DNA of 59,344 nucleotides, the filler included, from Streblomastix strix (lineage: Eukaryota), in the NCBI GenBank assembly GCA_008636045.1. It is 3 parts of 3 records of this genome, joined end to end, with 100 filler letters (N's around TTAATTAATTAA, not from the genome) between each part and the next. Parts side by side here need not be neighbours in the genome. Positions count along the whole stretch, not along the records: positions 39,639 to 59,344 come from SNRW01000493.1; 2 more parts are not named here. One strand, given 5' to 3'. The notes beneath the pieces were generated by a model that did no database searches, was not told the origin of the DNA, and saw nothing but the letters and a program-made list of their open reading frames with translations. Positions 11,573 through 59,344 of the stretch are shown here, piece by piece; the first letter of the stretch is position 1; every line of letters starts with the position of its first letter. Both the position numbers and the translations under genes were made by a program.

Positions 11573-11850
11573 TTTGTTATTATTTTTATTTTTTATTCAT
11601 TCATTTCAATTTTATTTTGATTCTTTTAATAACTAATACAAATACTTATTTATTACAATGATTGAGATTGTTACATTTTATGATTAAACTTCATACTTAA
11701 AAAAGATCTTAATTTAATTTTAATTTCCACAGATATATTGAATTTTATTATTAAATGAAGAATTTAAATGATTAACAGAGGTGAATTGAATTTACTTTTT
11801 GAATAAGTAGAAAAGGTAAAAAATATTTAAATCAATTCAATAAAATAAAA

Positions 11851-13415
11851 TAAAATAGGGAAATAGTTTTATATCAATTTGATAAGATGAAGATGAATAA
11901 GATAATCTCAAATAGATTAAAAGAGTGAAATAATTGAATATCAATTTTATAAGAAGAATATGAATAAGATTATCTCAAATAGAATAAAAAAGTGAAATAG
12001 TTTAATATCAAATTGATAAGATTAAAATGAATAAGATTATCTCAAATAGAATAAAAGAGTGAAATAGTTTAATATCAAATTGATAAGATGAAGATGAATA
12101 AGATAATATCAAATAGAATAAAAGAGTGAAATAGTTTAATATCAAATTGAAAAGATGAAGATGAATAAGATAATCTCAAAAAGAATAAAAGAGTGGAATA
12201 GTTTAATATCAAATTGATAAGATGAAGATGAACAAGATAATATCAAATAGAATAAATGAGTGAAATAATTTAATATCAATTTGAAAATATAAATTTAAAT
12301 AAGATAATATCAAATAGAATAAAAGAGTGAAATATTTTAATATCAAATTGATAAGATGAAGATGAATAAGAAAATCTCAAATAGAATGAATGAGTGAAAT
12401 AATTGAATATCAATTTGATAAGATGTAGATTAATAAGATAATCTAAAATAGAATAAAATAGTGAAATAGTTTAATATTTATTTGATAAGATGAAGATGAA
12501 TAAGATAATCTCAAATAGAATAAAAGATTGAAATTGTTTAATATCAAATTGATAAGATGAAGATGAATAAGATAATATCTAATAGAATAAAAGAGTAAAA
12601 TAGTTTAATATCAATTTGAAAATATAAATTTAAATAAGATAATATCAAATAGAATAAAAGAGTGAAATAGTTTAATATCAAATTGATAAGATGAAGATGA
12701 ATAAGAAAATCTCAAAAAGAATAAAAGAGTTAAATAGTTTAATATCAATTTGATAAAAAGAATATAAATAAGATAATCTTAAATAGAATAAAATAGTGAA
12801 ATAGTTTAATATCAAATTGATAAGATGAAGATGAATAAGATAATATCAAATAGAATGAATGAGTGAAATAATTTAATATCAATTTGAAAATATAAATTTA
12901 AATAAGATAATATCAAATAGAATAAAAGAGTGATATAATTTAAAATCAAATTAATAAGATGAAGATGAATAAGATAATATCAAACAGAATAAAATAGTGA
13001 AATAGTTTAATATCAAATTAATAAGATGAAGATGAATAAGATAATATCTAATAGAATAAAATAGTGAAATAGTTTAATATCAAATTGATAAGATGAAGAT
13101 GAATAAGATAATATCTAATAGAATAAAAGAGTGAAATAGTTTAATATTAATTTGAAAATATAAATTTAAATAAGATAATCTCAAACAGAATAAGATAGTG
13201 AAATAGTTTAATATCAAATTGATAAGATGAAGATGAATAAGATAATCTCAAATAGAATGAATGAGTGAAATAATTTAATATCAATTTGAAAATATAAATT
13301 TAAATAAGATAATATCAAATAGAATAAAAGTGTGAAATAGTTTAATATCAATTTGATAAATTTAATTCGAATAAGATAATATCAAATAGAATAAAAGAGT
13401 GAAATAAATTAATAT
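11851..13415. repeat. 67-bp tandem satellite, about 23 copies
   Basis: Consensus AATAGAATAAAAGAGTGAAATAGTTTAATATCAAATTGATAAGATGAAGATGAATAAGATAATMTCA. The GTGAAA anchor recurs at 11925, 11992, 12059 ... 13399, i.e. exactly 22 x 67 from the first. Confidence 0.97.
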
Positions 13416-18723: not shown

Positions 18724-19723
18724 AAACATGATATAAAAATCAGATTTTATATATAAATTTTGTTTTAGGTTGTAATGAAAAGAGGAAAATAGAGAAAATA
18801 GAGCAAAGCATACAACTGCCACTAATTAAAAAGATATTTAAATTTTTTTCAGTTATTATTATCAACATCATTCTAACCTTATATTTTTACATCATGATTG
18901 GGAACATTTCATGCTAATTAGTTGAAGTCTGAAGAAATTGATATTTTAGCTATATGAATAATCATCAATAGTCGTTCAACAATTTTAAATTTTATATATT
19001 ATCTTTCAATGTTAATACTATCCTTTAACCAGTCTACTTTAAACGATTTTAATATGATAAAAATGTTATTATCAATTTTTATTCTTTACATTTAAAGTTA
19101 AATTTTAAATTGATTTTATTTTTTTTTAATTCAGGTCATTTTTATAAATTTTTCCTTAAAAAATATTTTTCTTCTTCTTATATACATAGATATTACAAAG
19201 GTTAAAAATTATCATTTAGATGATAACATAATGCTAGATCTCTGCAGTAATTCGTCGAAGATAATATAAAATAATACAGGATTGGGGAATTATTTATTCA
19301 TTCTTTTTTCATTTGCAATATAAATTTATGGAGTTATAATAAATTAATATAATAATAACGTGAATTCATTCATTTTTACTAATTTATATTTTTAATAGTC
19401 ATCCAAATCGGTAATAAAAGATAATTTTATCTTATCATTTCATTTTATCAAAATATCTATTGTTTCTTTTGATTATTTATTGATGATTATTCACATAGCT
19501 AAAATATCAATTTCTTCAGACATCAACTAATCAGCATGAAATGTTCCCAATCATGATGTAAAAATATAAGGTTAGAATGATGTTGATAATAATAACTGAA
19601 AAAATTTAAATATCTTTTTAATTAGTGGCAGTTGTATGCTTTGCTCTATTTTCTCTATTTTCCTCTTTGCATTACAACCTAAAACAAAATTTATATATAA
19701 AATCTGATTTTTATATCATGTTT
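18724..19723. repeat. Long inverted repeat (arms ~18724-18970 and ~19478-19723), truncated by the contig end
   Basis: The arms are reverse complements over ~246 bp with 4 substitutions and 1 single-base indel, separated by a ~500-bp spacer. Confidence 0.9.
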
Positions 19724-19823
19724 NNNNNNNNNNNNNNNNNNNNNNNNNNNNNNNNNNNNNNNNNNNNTTAATTAATTAANNNNNNNNNNNNNNNNNNNNN
19801 NNNNNNNNNNNNNNNNNNNNNNN
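19724..19823. other. Artificial contig linker (44 N + TTAATTAATTAA + 44 N)
   Basis: Exactly 100 nt with a core carrying TAA in all six frames. The three segments are 19723, 19715 and 19706 bp, i.e. sorted by length. Confidence 0.98.
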
Positions 19824-25003: not shown

Positions 25004-25656
25004 ATGTCCATTTTTGAAACTATCTTAAAGAGATACATTGTCGCAAATTTGATGACAAGTCAGTGCCGAAAGAATTGATTAATAAAATCTTAGAGAGTAT
25101 GCGATTTGCACCAAGTGGATTGAATTAGCAAGGATGGCATTTCAGAGTAGTCACGAATCAGAAAATCTATGATAATATTGGAGCAGTTATTGAACCACAA
25201 ATCCTTAAGGCTGGACCACAAAATATTGAAAGAAAACTTCCTGGAATAAGAAACATCACTTTTTATAACGCACCTGTTGTCATATATGCGACAGTCCCTG
25301 TTGAAGCACATCGCATGAAATACATTGATATTGGACTTGCAATTGAGAATGGAGCACTTATTGCTGAAGAGCTTGGTTAGTGTTTTGAATAATTTAATTA
25401 TTTATTTAATTAATTTACAACAAATTTATTAATAAATATAAACATTATATAAATATTATATTTTGTAGGTCTTGGAGCAGCAATTATAGGAACAATCAGA
25501 GAGCTTGGTCCTGAAATTGTCTATAAAACATTGAATATTGATGAAACTAAAGAAGAATACATCATTTCATTGGCGATTGGTTATATTGCAGAAGGATTTC
25601 AGCCACAGATCAGACCTAGGAAGCCAATTGAATAGATTGTAACATTTATTGAATGA
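25004..25656 (+). pseudogene. FMN nitroreductase family gene with a 1-nt frameshift near codon 12 (pseudogene or sequence error)
   Basis: MSIFETILKRY-[AT, 2 nt]-CRKFDDKSVPKELINKILESMRFAPSGLNQQGWHFRVV...YNAPVVI...DIGLAIENGALIAEELGLGAAIIG...LAIGY...RPRKPIEQIVTFIE-TGA. One GT-AG intron at 25376-25468. Confidence 0.85.
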
Positions 25657-26205
25657 ATAAACATAATTCTTATTTCATATTTAATTGATGTAAAGATAAT
25701 ATGTCTAACAATGATTTGAAATGTGATAAGATTTTTTATTTAAATTTTCTCGGTTATATTTTAGATTTTCAACATTTACAGAACTACAATATAATTAATT
25801 ATATAAAAATTAGTATTTAAGATTATTATTAGAACATAATATTAGCAATTCATTTGGTTGAAAATATAAAAAATAGTGTAATTTTTATATGAACAAGAAC
25901 ATTACACGCAAACATTCAAAATTTTTAAGTGATCAATGATTTGCTGCATAAATGAATGATATACGTGTAGGTAAAATAAGGAATAGAAATATGATTGACG
26001 TGTAGGAAAGAGAGATTGATCAATAATATAAAAATAAAATAAAATTATTATTAAAGGGAGATAAAGCAAAATATGTGTGTAATGAGAATATTATGATTAT
26101 GATGAATAGACGAGTATTTGATTTGAATACAAATTAATCACAAATGTAAATGAAGAATAATTACTAGATTAAATATTAATTCATTAATATTATTATTACT
26201 CTTAT

Positions 26206-32585: not shown

Positions 32586-33174
32586 GAAAGAGTTGATTAA
32601 TAAAATCTTAGAGAGTATGTGGTTTGCACCGAGTGAATTGAGCCAGTAAGGATGGCATTTCATAGTAGTCACTAATCAGAAAATCAATGATGATATTGGA
32701 GCAGTTATTGAACCACAAATCCTTAAGGCTCGACCACAAAATATTAAAAGAAAACTTCCTGGAATAAGAAACATCACTTTTTATAACGCGCCTGATGTCA
32801 TATATGCGACAGTCCCTGTTGAAGCACATCGCATGAAATACATTGACATTGGACTTGCAATTGAGAATGGAGCACTTATTGCTGAAGAGCTTGGTTAGTG
32901 TTTTGAATAATTTAATTATTTAATTAAATAATTTACAACAAATTTATTAATTATTATTAACATTATCTAAATATTTTATTTTGTAGGCCTTGGAGCAGCT
33001 ATTATAGGAACAATCAGAGAGCTTGGTCCTGAAATTGTCTATAAAACATTGAATAATGATGAAACTAAAGAAGAATACATCATTTCATTGGCGATTGGTT
33101 ATATTGCAGAAGGATTTCAGCCACAGATCAGACCTCGGAAGCCAATTGAAGAGATTGTAACATTTATTGAATGA
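32586..33174 (+). pseudogene. 5'-truncated duplicate of the nitroreductase gene
   Basis: Nearly identical to ~25067-25680, including the intron and 3' flank. It lacks the ATG and first ~20 codons, and MRFAPSGLN has become MWFAPSELS. Confidence 0.9.
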
Positions 33175-33284
33175 ATAAGCATAATTCTTATTTCATATTC
33201 TAAATAAGAAAATTTACTACAGTGCTGCAATTAATTTAATTTTTATACATTTTATAAATATATATTTTTATAAAATAAAGTTTA

Positions 33285-39538: not shown

Positions 39539-39638
39539 NNNNNNNNNNNNNNNNNNNNNNNNNNNNNNNNNNNNNNNNNNNNTTAATTAATTAANNNNNN
39601 NNNNNNNNNNNNNNNNNNNNNNNNNNNNNNNNNNNNNN
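39539..39638. other. Artificial contig linker (44 N + TTAATTAATTAA + 44 N)
   Basis: Same structure as 19724-19823. Confidence 0.98.
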
Positions 39639-53504: not shown

Positions 53505-55393
53505 ATGTTTTTATAATAAATAAATAGATTCAATCTAATTTACCAATAAATATAATCCATTTTGTAGGGACATTCTGAATATCATTTCAAGCATTTTGTT
53601 AAAAATTACTTTGTTAAAATGAAATTATTTTTCTGGATTAAAAGTATAATAAAAGTAAATTGTAATGAATTTATGATTAACACTGCGTTTTTGAGCTAAC
53701 TTATATTACGAGCGACAAAGAGTGATCCAGAGAAAGAATTGCGATTTATATTATGATAATACAATTAGCGTTTTACGATGGAATAGTTAAAAGAAATTGT
53801 ATAAATAGCATCTGATAATAGTCAATCTGTAGTAATGAAATTGATATTTTATTTAAATAAACGATCTAGAATAATTCAACCTTGTTGGCATTCCGAATGA
53901 AGTTTAATTTTAATGAAATATCTAACATCGGTTTACAATTTATCAGTTCAGATTCGGATAAGGATTTTGTAACATGGTAACCAACTATCTTTAGTGGATA
54001 ATAATGCCATCAAATTATTAATATCAACAACATTCCAATTTATTTAACGAAATGTTTGAATGATAATTAAATAGAAATATAGTATAAATTAATATCTATT
54101 GAATTAAGAAAAATCTATTTATAATAATAAATTGACGAGGATCGGTATTATTGTTAAATTACTAGGAAGATTACTACCAATTCATATTAATTTGAATACA
54201 ACTATAAATAATGCTTATACAAATGATCAAAAAATATATGGATAAAATTTTTTAACTTAGATTACTTTACTTAGCATTTTTAACATTATGTATAGCTTTA
54301 CTAATTCAGTTGAAAAATATTTTAGTCCTTAATCAACTTTGAACAGTGGAGCAATATGCTTTAATAATGCAACGAATGAACATGTATAAAAACTGTAGGA
54401 TAATTTGATCGCATTAAATTAGAATTATGGTCAAGATTTAGTAAATTCAGCTATCTATCACATTAATTTTAGAATCGATGCATTTCTTAATCATAGCTGG
54501 ATTTCAGACGCAATAGTAAATTAGTTATATCGATTGATTGGACTAATAGGATAATATTGTACAACTTCAAATAAATGTACTACGTCAATTGAACCAAAGA
54601 ATTTTACATAAGGTAATGGATTATCAAAAAGATATTTATTTTATAAGTAAGTTGATATAAATACTAATGGAACATTTACTACATCAGATGTTTAAATTTA
54701 TAATGTACAACGAGAAACAAAATATAATTAATCATTAATAATACTAACACATTTCCAGTTAGAACTATTAATTCCTTACCTGCATTTTTAATAGGCGAAT
54801 GGTAATATATTTATACTGGTGTTGGAAAAATAAATTATTATGATTAATTAATACCATATGCTGTAACGAATTAAGTTTTACAAAATAATATTTATTGGTT
54901 CTCTAATTGTGTATTTTTATCTCCAAATCTATACGTATAACTAGTTGGTGGATAAGATCTATATGATGGATAGAATGAAAATGGAGCCAATTAATTAGTT
55001 AATTTATCATCAGCTATTAAACAAATTTATCTCGAAGTATGATTTTATTAAACTAAATATGAAAGTTAAAGTTTAGAATTTGATCTTCCAATATTCTGTT
55101 CATACATTGGGAATTTTCTAGAGTATCCAAAAATGCTGATTATTTATGTATCTAATTAATTATAAGGAATAACTCTTTAATCAACAGGTGGTAATGGTTT
55201 CTCTAATGAACGCTTTAAGCAAAATTTGATTGATGCGCCAGTATTATGGAGATTGAATATGATGAGTCAGTAATGCCATATAGAATAGAACAAATCGTTA
55301 GTTTTTACATTATATGATAACTTTGGAAAAAAGATACCAATGCAATATATGGATAAGTTTAATAATTTATTGTTAGAGATATAATTTTAATGA
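53505..55393 (+). pseudogene. Capsid-like (minor capsid/penton-like C-terminus) gene, degenerate
   Basis: About 630 codons, intron-less, with internal TGAs and frameshifts. It ends SLVFTLYDNFGKKIPMQYMDKFNNLLLEIQFQ-TGA, resembling the single-jelly-roll penton C-terminal strand pair (I.L.D..G..I.......LE.). Confidence 0.45.
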
Positions 55394-55427: not shown

Positions 55428-55981
55428 ATGTCTTATCTAAAGAAAGCGGAGCTAATTAAACTACTCAAAATCAACAATAAAAATGTCAATGAATCATTAA
55501 ATGAAAATTAACTTAAAGATTAACTCAATAAATATTTAGGCAAAATTAATTATAAGAAGAGAGGAAGGAATAACTATAATAATTTGAAGTCACATCTAAA
55601 ATAGATACATTAATACAATCAGTAAATTCTTAAGGCAAGAGATATGACTAATCATTTCAAATAGAATCAATATGATTAAGATTTATAAGAATATAGAAGG
55701 GATTAATTGTAACAATAAGCAGAAATTTACTATGATGATTTATTAGAATAGAATCGATAATTACATTAAGATTTAACTCATTATCACTCAAATTAATATG
55801 ATTAAGATATATTTGAATATCGTAGGGAATAAGAATAACAATAAGCTGATGAATTCTGGACTAATTATATCATTGAGGAATATGAATAAGCTAGAAGAAT
55901 ATTGGAAGAAGAATATGATGCAAACCTTCAATATTAAATAATTACCAAACAAAATAAAGAGATCAATGATAGAAATAATCC
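55428..55981 (+). pseudogene. Truncated viral-remnant ORF cut by the fold-back element
   Basis: MSYLKKAELIKLLK... with an internal repeat, NQYDQDLQEYRRDQLQQQAE / NQYDQDIFEYRREQEQQQAD. Coding-like sequence stops at INDRNNP, where the fold-back begins. Confidence 0.55.
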
Positions 55982-56380
55982 TAAATTTTATTCCATAAAA
56001 ATATTCAAACTAATTAAATTAATAATTTTCATAAATGTAAATATTATAATTTTGTATTAACAAATAATTCGGCGAAAAATATAATTTTCCATTTGCTACT
56101 CCAACTGTATACATAATTCCGAATTGTTTGATAAATTTTTCAATAAAATATTTTTTATTTAAATTATCTTAATCTAATTATACTTTAAGCGGAAAACGCT
56201 GGAGTAAAACGAGAAAAATCGAATTTTTCATTTTTCTCCCAAATTACCTGTGCTGTTATATTAAATTTATTATATTTAATAATTTTTAAATTTTTAATAT
56301 AATATTTTAATAAAAATATCACATAATACTCAATCATTAAGATAAAATTGTTTTTTTTATTTTTTTTCTGAAAATTAAGG

Positions 56381-56424
<44 letters not shown>

Positions 56425-56762
56425 CAATCATACCGTATGATTTAAAAGAAATTTTTTATTGATTGACAAAATATTAATTAAAACATAATAATGAACGGAT
56501 AAGAAAAATAAGAAATTCGATTTTTCTCGTTTTACTTCAGCATTTTCCGCTAAAATTATATTAATATTAAAAAAAATTTAAATAAAATTTTTTTTAAAGA
56601 AAAATAAATCAAACAATTCGGAATTATGTATTCAATTGTGGTCGTAAATGGATAATTGTATATTTTGACGAATTTTTAGTATGTGTAAAATAATATTATT
56701 TTTATTTATGAAAATTATTAATTTAATTAATTTAAATAATTTTATCCAATAAAATTGTGGAT
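55978..56762. mobile_element. Fold-back element: ~260-bp imperfect inverted arms around a (TA)n core
   Basis: ATACATAATTCCGAATTGTTTGAT and AGTAAAACGAGAAAAATCGAATTT occur in the left arm and as exact reverse complements in the right arm. (TA)n at ~56385-56422. Confidence 0.85.
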
Positions 56763-56899
56763 GTCGCTTGTGAGCGGAACCATCCATATGATGAATAGAT
56801 TGAAAACGGTATAAATTAATATGTAAATTTTTTATCAGCTATTATTTTAATTGATTTAAAAGAATGGTTTTATTAAACAATACATGATAATTAAAATTA

Positions 56900-58646
56900 T
56901 TTTTAGTATGTTACCATTCCATCAGATGTATAACTCAAACTATATTATAACAATCCAAAACGGCTTTTTCAACTATAAGTGAATTCTACTGACACATCAT
57001 CTGCATTAGTACATACATTGGAAGTACGCAATATAATGATTTTTTAATTCCAGCAATTTTTAATTCTCATTTTGCTAATATTAATGATGTTGGCGATCCA
57101 TCCGCAAATAGAATCTATAAATATTTTCCTTTATAAATTTTTTGAATAATTATGCAATAATAAATTCTTCAAATATCGTTATATCAGTAACAGTTTTTTT
57201 GATGATAAATCCATTAATTTATTAGTATTTGAAGTTATTTTTGAACTATCATTATAAATATTTAGTCGAAAACTAAGATCCTTTGTCAGTTAGTACTATC
57301 CTTATTTTACCAATCGACTCTAATTTAATGGTTGCAGAATAAATATTTGCTGTACCTGTTCCAGTATAGGTATGAAATAGTTAAGTTGCACTATTTTGAA
57401 TCTAATAACTAGAACTAAGTTTTATTAGATGGGTGAATTCTCCATTAATAGTAGTGATATCATTAAAGGAGTAATTTGATTACAATCAAATGATTTAAAT
57501 TACAATGATGGATGAATAAACTTTAATTTCTATGAACAGACTATCAACTCTACTACTAGCTGGAAATACACTTAATCTAACCAATTTACTACCTGAATAT
57601 GTTCTTGATAACTTATTATCTAAATTAGTTGTATCACCATTTACGAATATTATTTTAGTTGTTAATCCTCCAGTTTTAATGAACTTAGTAGCACAAATAT
57701 TATCATCATAAGAAAATTATTTTAAATAAGCATGGTCACGTCTAGTGAAAAAGGCTGATGTTCCATTTGCACCAACACCATTAACGATTGGGATATTTGA
57801 AGCATTAGTTTCAACGTTAACTGGATGTGAATGATCGTTTCTAGCACAAGCAGCAGCAGTTCGATAATCCATCAGCTATATCGGATTGCAGAGATGCATT
57901 AAAGGTTTGAATTGGATATTTATTATCAGATCTTGTATAAGTACTAGCAAAATCAATATTTTTTACTGAAGTATCTTTCTGTGGTAAAGTAGTCGCTACA
58001 ATAATGGGATATATATCATCATCACGTGAAGATTAAGCGCATTTTACTGCAGTTGATGTACCATCAGATAATAGAGTAACATCACTTGTAGAAGTTACTT
58101 AATCAGGAACTCTATCTCCACTATTATACCAATTAACTTCGTACATACGTATTGTTCCACTATCTGCGGTAAAAAAATAACTCCAATATCAGAATTAAGT
58201 AAATTTGTTATATCACCGTTAAATAAATAATATTATCGGAAATGAGTTTATCGTAACAATTCGTCATTCTTGTCATCATCATCATTTTTAACATCAGTGA
58301 TATCTTACTCATTTGCTCTATTTGATTTTTATATTTAATTCAATTAATTAATCAACTAATTAATTTATGCATCAAAATCTAAATTTACAACTTTCAAATT
58401 CATTACTGTTAGCAATCCATTATGTTCTATTTATGATGCATATTCTGATGCAATTTCATCAACGATTTAAATATTATCTACATAAATCAAAAAGTTGTTA
58501 TTATCTATGAATAATTGTTAGTCTTTATTTGGCTTTAATCCTTAACTTGAACCACCTAGTTTCTAACACAAAATATATAATGCAATTTCATTGGTGAAAA
58601 GTTAACTAACGGTTCGAATATTTTGTTTCGATAATAAGTTGTTCAT
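56900..58646 (-). pseudogene. Bacteriophage tail-fibre-like protein, degenerate
   Basis: ATG at 58646, a coiled-coil segment, then FTADSGTIRMYEVNWYNSGDRVPDQVT and four ~32-aa repeats ending SRDDDIYP / TRSDNKYP / ARNDHSHP / TRRDHAIQ. These are followed by ATKFIKTGG..IIFVNGD and a later QILFADGS. Frameshifts present; 3' end approximate. Confidence 0.65.
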
Positions 58647-58704
58647 TTCAATAAAAATAAATTGATCGAGTTTCATCACCAACTTTGTTGGCGGGCATAA
58701 ATGC

Positions 58705-58914
58705 TCAACAATATTTATTTTCAAGATGATCAATTGAACCTACGAGGTTAGCTCCTGCACCTAATTCATCTTTAATTGCTGAATGATTAATTAATATTGG
58801 TCTTGATATTTTTGTTAAAACTTTACATAATGCTGATGTGAAACATTATGCTGCTTTTTTAACACCATCTAATACTTTCGACCCAAAATTTGCTATTCAA
58901 GAAAAGAAACCCAT
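58705..58914 (-). pseudogene. Small amphipathic-helix protein, adenovirus pVI-like membrane-penetration candidate
   Basis: 70 codons: MGFFS*IANFGSKVLDGVKKAAQCFTSALCKVLTKISRPILINHSAIKDELGAGANLVGSIDHLENKYC-TGA. The codon-6 TGA is one substitution from GGA. Confidence 0.5.
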
Positions 58915-58919
58915 TTGAT

Positions 58920-59344
58920 TTATTATAAAACTTTTACCATAAACATCCATTCCGTTTCATTAATTTTTGTTTCAATGAAATGTTATTCAATTCTAATGAT
59001 TATCTTGAACACTTAACATAAACACAACATTCGGATTACTTCAGTGAATATACGTGTCTTGGAAGAGTTCATAAAGCATTATCTATCCATCTTCAATCAT
59101 TTGAAATATCAAAGCAAAATTGCTTCGATTTTCCTATTATAAAACTAACATCGTGTGGAGTCATATATACTAGAGCACCATTAGGAGCAAGAGGTAAATC
59201 AGCATGTTCAATGGTATAAACTTGTTAAGTAAATTGGACAATTACAATACCTAAAAATACATTAGCGATATAATTAAATAAAACATATAATGACTGGAAT
59301 ACTGCAGGTAAATTAATCGCACGAACTAATTTCAATGGTAAAGA
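58920..59344 (-). pseudogene. 5'-partial degenerate ORF of the viral remnant
   Basis: QVYTIEHADLPLAPNGALVYMTPHDVSFIIGK...LPRHVYSLKQ...LELNNISLK in one frame with two internal TGAs; intron-less. Confidence 0.45.

Follow-up and report, generated by a model that had tools for sequence, protein, structure and literature searches.

Phage-like fibres in viruses of protists

Phage-like fibres have already been described in Polinton-like viruses (PMC12220804; bioRxiv 2022.07.28.501842), and Ltf of Gezel-14T/PgVV was detected in virions (bioRxiv 2022.07.28.501842). Moreover, Streblomastix strix is known to harbour endogenous viral elements with an MCP, placed in a Metamonada group and using the TAR=Gln code (PMC10120064). 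PMC12220804 does not mention Streblomastix, and neither 'fiber' nor 'fibre' occurs in the main text of PMC10120064. The literature searched held no description of an S. strix fibre family, although supplements may annotate the elements.

The locus studied here lies in a window of 59,344 nt, a term used for the whole stretch of DNA that was analysed. As a gene in the protist's code was found to carry a module about 50% identical to phage proteins, its product was read as a likely attachment fibre, which a Polinton-like virus inserted in the genome would have borrowed from a phage. In full, it is probably a broken, host-coded copy of a likely receptor-binding fibre gene from an endogenous Polinton-like virus of S. 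strix, and its likely source is a tailed phage infecting gut bacteria, through a single acquisition.

As in the Polinton-like virus fibres (PMC12220804; Ltf), the architecture is modular, the parts are of phage type, and the carrier would be an integrating virus of a protist. However, none of the domains known from those fibres (S74, collagen, Laminin G3, PTR, BppL and gp36-like) was matched in the S. strix proteins scanned, and the S. strix module has traceable counterparts in gut prophages, with which it is about 50% identical. The Metamonada-group viruses of S. strix (PMC10120064) have the same host and the same TAR=Gln code, but the MCP comes from that study and a capsid candidate only was found here. 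The shaft recalls the T4 gp37-type fibres (PMC11705849) in its repeated HxH, conserved in the S. strix kin and intact in one of the four repeats of the window copy, and by this analogy the S. strix repeats may bind metal. A sequence comparison of the S. strix fibre with gp37 and other solved fibres gave no match.

A broken, probable fibre gene in the host code

The window consists of three pieces joined by N spacers (19724-19823 and 39539-39638, each composed of N44, 12 AT bases and N44), so that genes on opposite sides of a spacer are not neighbours, and the fibre gene belongs to the terminal part of the third piece. The first piece has an inverted repeat at its end (18724-19723; 247 nt, 98% identical). 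Elsewhere in the window, about 23 tandem copies of a 67-nt unit, approximately 88% alike, occupy 11840-13415, and two gene copies that are 95% identical and presumably nitroreductase-like lie at 25068-25681 and 32586-33199. Two contigs of run X1 (56800-57791 and 57783-58663) reproduced positions 56800-58663 with 0 differences and 0 gaps; since X1 is perhaps the source data itself, this agreement counters an assembly slip and nothing more. Only one public run matched the window, a termite gut metagenome, and no RNA run was listed.

Under table 11, ORFs were almost absent, none reaching 100 aa in the fibre region, while table 6 produced long ORFs. Furthermore, of the 16 Gln codons that the window shows at positions of conserved Gln in the kin, 14 were TAA or TAG. 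The fibre gene is therefore written in the host code, in agreement with the recoding to TAR=Gln proposed in the preliminary description.

The gene occupies the minus strand between 58646 and approximately 56890 (Table 1). It is a pseudogene that has at least four frameshifts (near 58180, 57862, 57270, 57140 and 57005), a TGA stop at 57486-57488 and an end that was cut near 56890, where it abuts a reversed fragment of another gene. This copy is dead. It keeps the commonest kin residue at 309 of 537 aligned positions, and its distal part had head A followed by head B.

Table 1. Features of the fibre pseudogene and of the neighbouring genes, in positions of the whole window.
Feature	Position	Strand	Evidence
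Piece 1: N-terminal domain (putative capsid anchor), coiled coil, start of HFRGY module	58182..58646	-	64% identity to S. strix P0008, 159 aa
Piece 2, shifted frame: Trp domain, PDQ linker, repeats 1 and 2 (His lost)	57868..58179	-	45% identity to P0008; module common to prophage proteins
Piece 3a: repeats 3 (HxH intact) and 4	57700..57860	-	
First shaft motif ATKFIKxGG...NG, clear	57636..57692	-	In frame in 104/121 viral loci retrieved by the same pattern
Head A, predicted beta-sandwich; contains the TGA	57261..57600	-	57% identity to P0048, 195 aa including upstream part; WceF match of kin model
Decayed linker and second shaft motif, two further frames	57010..57283	-	tblastn alignments of low significance (E from 3e-4 to 0.8)
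Fragment of type B second head, end cut off	56891..56998	-	53% identity to P0027, 36 aa, E 2e-6
Small conserved ORF upstream, one TGA	58738..58914	-	63% identity to P0008 N-terminus; no PDB match
C-terminal end of upstream multicopy gene, two stops, 136 aa; candidate capsid protein	58937..59344	-	S. strix kin P0233, P0234, P0084
Second-copy fragment of the 54060-55360 gene, abutting the cut end of the fibre	56782..56898	+	75% DNA identity to 54957-55073; tblastx E 8e-9
Imperfect 785-nt hairpin, (AT)n centre	55978..56762	.	72% self-complementary
Broken multicopy gene	54060..55365	+	13 relatives among 1.84 billion; S. strix in 8/8 looked up
Decayed ATPase-like pieces	53500..53900	+	Translation by eye; no profile match
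Decayed integrase-like piece	50590..50890	+	Translation by eye; no rve match

The four repeats could be located by their Arg residues (minus strand, 58026, 57933, 57842 and 57743; intervals of 93, 91 and 99 nt), the frameshift near 57862 splitting them over two frames. HxH was kept only in repeat 3 (ARNDHSHP), with one His left in repeat 4 and none in repeats 1 and 2. Thus, the four units with an RxDHxHP-like motif that had been described are present, but only one of them retains HxH and they do not share a frame. In six frames, the repeat pattern was matched twice, compared to a mean of 0.24 and a maximum of 2 in 100 shuffles; since this pattern by itself is weak evidence, the feature stands on homology. 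Likewise, of the two copies reported for the AxxFxKxGG-type motif, the first is clear, but the second (near 57130-57095) is decayed, lies in a different frame and has a weak alignment (E 0.79) as its sole backing. The coiled coil, described earlier as N-terminal, was placed at about 58370-58250, behind some 90 residues of another domain, and Pfam gave weak coil-type matches only.

Copies and variable heads in S. strix

A search with the stop-free frame of the region retrieved 186 proteins, and all 120 listed were hypothetical proteins of S. strix, two of which bore the UniRef label 'tail fiber'; the window was accordingly assigned to S. strix. The R.DH.H pattern is intact in these kin, with 383 matches in the 120 listed proteins, four per protein in 56 of them, and a repeat spacing of mostly 31 and 33. 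After their N-terminal domain, the kin proceed through a coil and an HFRGY/Trp domain to four repeats, which are followed by the shaft motif and a variable distal part, with a recurring module at the C-terminus and a small amphipathic ORF upstream of the gene, which was linked to the fibre in 26-29 kin. Following the shaft motif, head A was found in 61 of the listed kin, head B in 10, an acidic stalk in 9 and other sequences in 18, while 22 were truncated or lacked the motif, these head classes being assigned by the analyst's own patterns. The distal domain therefore varies among genomic copies, a point that the preliminary description had proposed to check. Heads A and B showed weak paralogy (6 of 9 comparisons at E<0.002, best reversed 0.12). 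Such variation was observed directly, and the heads were likely swapped among copies after the transfer. The N-terminal domain had no match among 1719 prokaryotic or viral targets, and neither head had a sequence match among the prokaryotic or viral targets retrieved. Separately, the annotated S. strix protein P0091 combines a fibre fragment with a DDE transposase domain (PF13358), probably reflecting a transposon that landed in a fibre copy.

Predicted structure of the head and shaft

The model of the kin protein P0074 contained a beta-sandwich at residues 105-230 (block pLDDT of 62-85). Among 48,161 chains, the head model was closest to the beta-sandwich of WceF (PDB 6tgf), with Z 10.8, rmsd 3.0, 122 aligned residues and 9% identity. 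WceF is a tailspike-like trimer in which the beta-sandwich domain comes after a triple beta-helix, according to PMC7949094; unlike it, the S. strix fibre is without a beta-helix enzyme domain, and the fold likeness shows no ligand. Ranks 2-6, with Z 5.7-6.9, were all chains of phage tailspikes or fibres, bearing in mind that Z below 8 may reflect a common fold. Moreover, Foldseek against BFVD returned 77 matches at E<=0.001, with E down to 1e-8, and most of the top rows with names were tail fibres, at TM-scores of approximately 0.2. The fold comparison thus supported a tailspike- or fibre-like head. In turn, the monomer model of the repeats and shaft was unfolded (mean pLDDT 38) and its fold search gave no match at E<=0.001; a poor monomer model would be expected of an intertwined trimer, yet it is no evidence for one.

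Relatives in tailed prophages

Neither the window pieces nor kin P0013 gave a tblastn match in INPHARED phages, and S. strix proteins compared by sequence with Pfam, PHROGs and PDB matched no fibre family, only weak coil-type entries (including a tail-needle, E 0.05). The JGI metagenome scans gave no relative, and the scan of viral sequences with the head alignment nothing useful. The repeat pattern was matched in at least 123 viral stretches and 103 genome stretches from many phyla, with 4 Bacteroidota and 25 Bacillota among the 80 genome titles in the RxDHxHP matches listed, and the shaft pattern in at least 121 viral stretches. Since both short motifs are common, the motifs alone point to no donor. 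In the retrieved loci, strict patterns found no ORF with both motifs, and profiles found both at L091 and L274. One phage contig with the repeat motif (L001:1480-4595) carries a reverse transcriptase together with an accessory gene and a target that is lectin-like, a set that we take to resemble a diversity-generating retroelement.

More informative was a longer common module composed of the coil, HFRGY, Trp domain, PDQ linker and first repeat. It scored about 100 bits in a Bacteroides genome (G001) and 61-70 bits in four others (G002-G005, three Clostridia-titled and one unclassified). The Bacteroides genome had 11 copies of the module, 10 of which fell within two tailed-prophage regions, one (contig C3) with terminase, portal, head protease and tape-measure matches and the other (contig C10) with a portal match. 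A search seeded with the Bacteroides protein retrieved 94 proteins, 93 of which scored 69-124 bits on the S. strix module profile, with 0 matches on reversed targets. The S. strix protein P0004 was 48-53% identical to its best relatives over about 100 aa. The module was not found in 400 further Bacteroidales genomes (0/400) or 399 further Clostridia genomes (0/399). On contig C3 of the Bacteroides genome, a reversed extra module gene lies within a cluster of five or six leucine-rich-repeat-like genes, which resemble one another and point in both directions (L239:5569-15383), possibly a variable or invertible adhesion region.

These Bacteroidales and Clostridia prophage proteins (P0124, P0125, P0127, P0158; G001-G005) have the coil, HFRGY, Trp, PDQ and RGDHxHP module in common with the S. 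strix fibres, and differ in their standard code, their N-termini and a whole module that is itself repeated, usually with one repeat per module. In the 94 relatives the repeat was nearly always single, apart from one 30-residue tandem pair, so the four-repeat array of S. strix is unmatched. P0158 additionally carries the C-terminal module of the S. strix kin (21.3 bits and iE 2.8e-5 in a set of 1719 targets, compared to 10.3 bits for the best reversed target), and differs in ending with an S74 chaperone (E 2e-9), with a tail-fibre PHROG match (E 5e-9). Further carriers had fibre-repeat, YadA-head or, under the cut-off, collagen domains. The best-characterised prophage carriers matched the PHROGs 'minor head protein' and 'virion structural protein', for which reason the donor may have been a head fibre instead of a tail fibre. 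Altogether, the prophage module, the S74 fibre P0158 and the tailspike-type head fold support the descent of the S. strix fibre family from tailed-phage virion proteins, in line with the ancestry first suggested for it.

Neighbouring genes and the probable viral element

The neighbours of the fibre are broken multicopy genes of S. strix (Table 1). The kin of the small upstream ORF have an amphipathic N-terminal helix, with a hydrophobic moment of 0.37-0.52 over the first 40 residues, and we assume that this ORF resembles the adenovirus membrane-lytic protein VI; if so, it would form with the fibre a linked attach-and-enter gene block. No Pfam or PHROG match gave a name to the capsid candidate. 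The broken gene at 54060..55365 received no name from PDB or Pfam and nothing useful from a scan of viral sequences, and its C-terminal motif is presumably penton-like. The decayed pieces at 53500..53900 and 50590..50890 are taken by us to resemble an A32-type packaging ATPase and an rve integrase core, respectively. Capsid, penton, ATPase and integrase profiles did not match the flanking genes in the window, and neither a protein-primed polymerase nor terminal inverted repeats were found in the part of the contig within it, which ends at 59344.

The fibre family is integrated, multicopy and in the host code, as expected for Maverick-Polinton or Polinton-like viruses, and the viral reading was adopted because of the way the genes are arranged, the number of copies and the fact that S. 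strix viral elements with this code have been published. Accordingly, the claim that the fibre lies inside a eukaryotic viral element is likely on these three grounds, but its flanking genes contributed no profile match.

Two other features were seen on this piece. A second hairpin (52267-53014, 66% self-complementary) is, like the one in Table 1, very AT-rich, and both have a 37-nt piece in common at 84%, so they possibly form a fold-back insertion family. A stop-free ORF of 1348 codons on the minus strand (46090-50136), with 32-38% GC compared to about 23% around it, is beta-helix-like, has a C-terminal hydrophobic stretch and no Pfam match, and is a candidate surface protein.

Probable origin and proposed function of the fibre

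For the module tree, the 54 S. strix modules were reduced to 19 by removing near-copies, and these were combined with 82 others over 102 columns, in a set that was biased by being seeded with a Bacteroides protein. The S. strix modules formed one group (support 100/99), attached near the junction of a Bacteroidales-type side and a Clostridia-containing side, with P0143 as the nearest row. This topology is consistent with a single acquisition. The donor phylum, as judged from sequence, leans to Bacteroidales: the six best matches of P0054 and of P0068 were all on the Bacteroidales-type side, where P0158, the protein with most modules in common, was also placed, and 34 of the 40 modules of that side had N-termini resembling named Bacteroidales proteins. 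Against this, it is quite possible, at somewhat less than even odds, that the same fibre came through a Clostridia-type phage or another eukaryotic virus rather than directly from a Bacteroidota phage. The module occurs in the three Clostridia-titled genomes and the unclassified one, four of the six best identities of P0004 came from the Clostridia-containing side, and forcing S. strix onto that side cost 4 log-likelihood units and was not rejected by the AU test (p-AU 0.432, for a group defined after inspection of the tree). Hence, the Bacteroidota donor suggested in the preliminary description is a leaning, in that the best named matches were Bacteroidales prophage proteins. A much more radical alternative, that the contig stems from a bacterial symbiont whose prophage was co-assembled, has next to no probability left: the sequence is phage-like and a single-cell metagenome origin is likely given the termite gut run, but TAA or TAG at 14 of 16 conserved Gln refutes it, and the lack of a table-11 ORF of 100 aa and the code-6 eukaryote-like genes on the same contig piece also speak against it.

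As to function, we infer a trimer with metal sites, vertex anchoring and glycan binding. In the intact virion, three chains would be anchored at a capsid vertex by the family-specific N-terminal domain. Outwards from it, the fibre would consist of a coiled coil, then a small Trp domain and finally the four His-rich repeats, each set of HxH presumably binding one metal ion on the three-fold axis as in T4 gp37-type fibres. The tip would consist of interchangeable beta-sandwich heads, predicted to grip glycans of the protist, whose own surface would be the ordinary target. Once the transfer had taken place, the four repeats likely arose by multiplication of the single one of the phage and heads would have been exchanged between copies; the shift of Gln codons to TAA/TAG was observed. 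A capsid-decorating whisker for sticking to the gut matrix or holding position, instead of a penton entry spike, seems unlikely: the prophage carriers adjoin capsid and major-tail genes and have minor-head-protein PHROG matches, and the Atlas gave a phage head-fibre cluster (score 0.79, a lead only), but the tailspike-type head fold, the S74 chaperone of P0158, which is the closest full-architecture relative, and the head swapping all argue for a receptor-binding role. Less probable still is a host-domesticated surface adhesin or a non-viral repeat expanded by the protist itself. The hundreds of copies in host code and the want of a proven viral hallmark in the window would suit it; however, neither signal peptide nor membrane anchor was seen by eye in the kin, and the intronless decay with neighbouring multicopy genes, the linked small ORF and the known viral elements of S. 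strix (PMC10120064) favour a virus.

The virion fibre of an endogenous Polinton-like virus hence remains the preferred explanation. Its heads might also have another target. Streblomastix carries a bacterial coat, and it is conceivable from the fold and the ecology, if rather improbable, that the fibre came from a phage whose Bacteroidales hosts live on the protist or next to it, and that its swappable tailspike-type heads still grip glycans of that coat. If this were true, a eukaryotic virus would dock on symbiotic bacteria to reach its host, and head swapping would track the turnover of symbionts.

The type of borrowing is itself known; what is new here is a close, traceable gut-prophage module in host code with swappable heads. 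Phage-like fibres of protist viruses are usually remote domain matches, while the S. strix module, for which no Pfam family exists and which few genomes contain, is about 50% identical to gut prophage proteins over 100 residues. The S. strix fibre would thus be a traceable transfer from a phage to a eukaryotic virus inside an animal gut, and its more than 100 copies with exchangeable heads make it testable whether the receptor is a glycan of the protist or of the symbiont.
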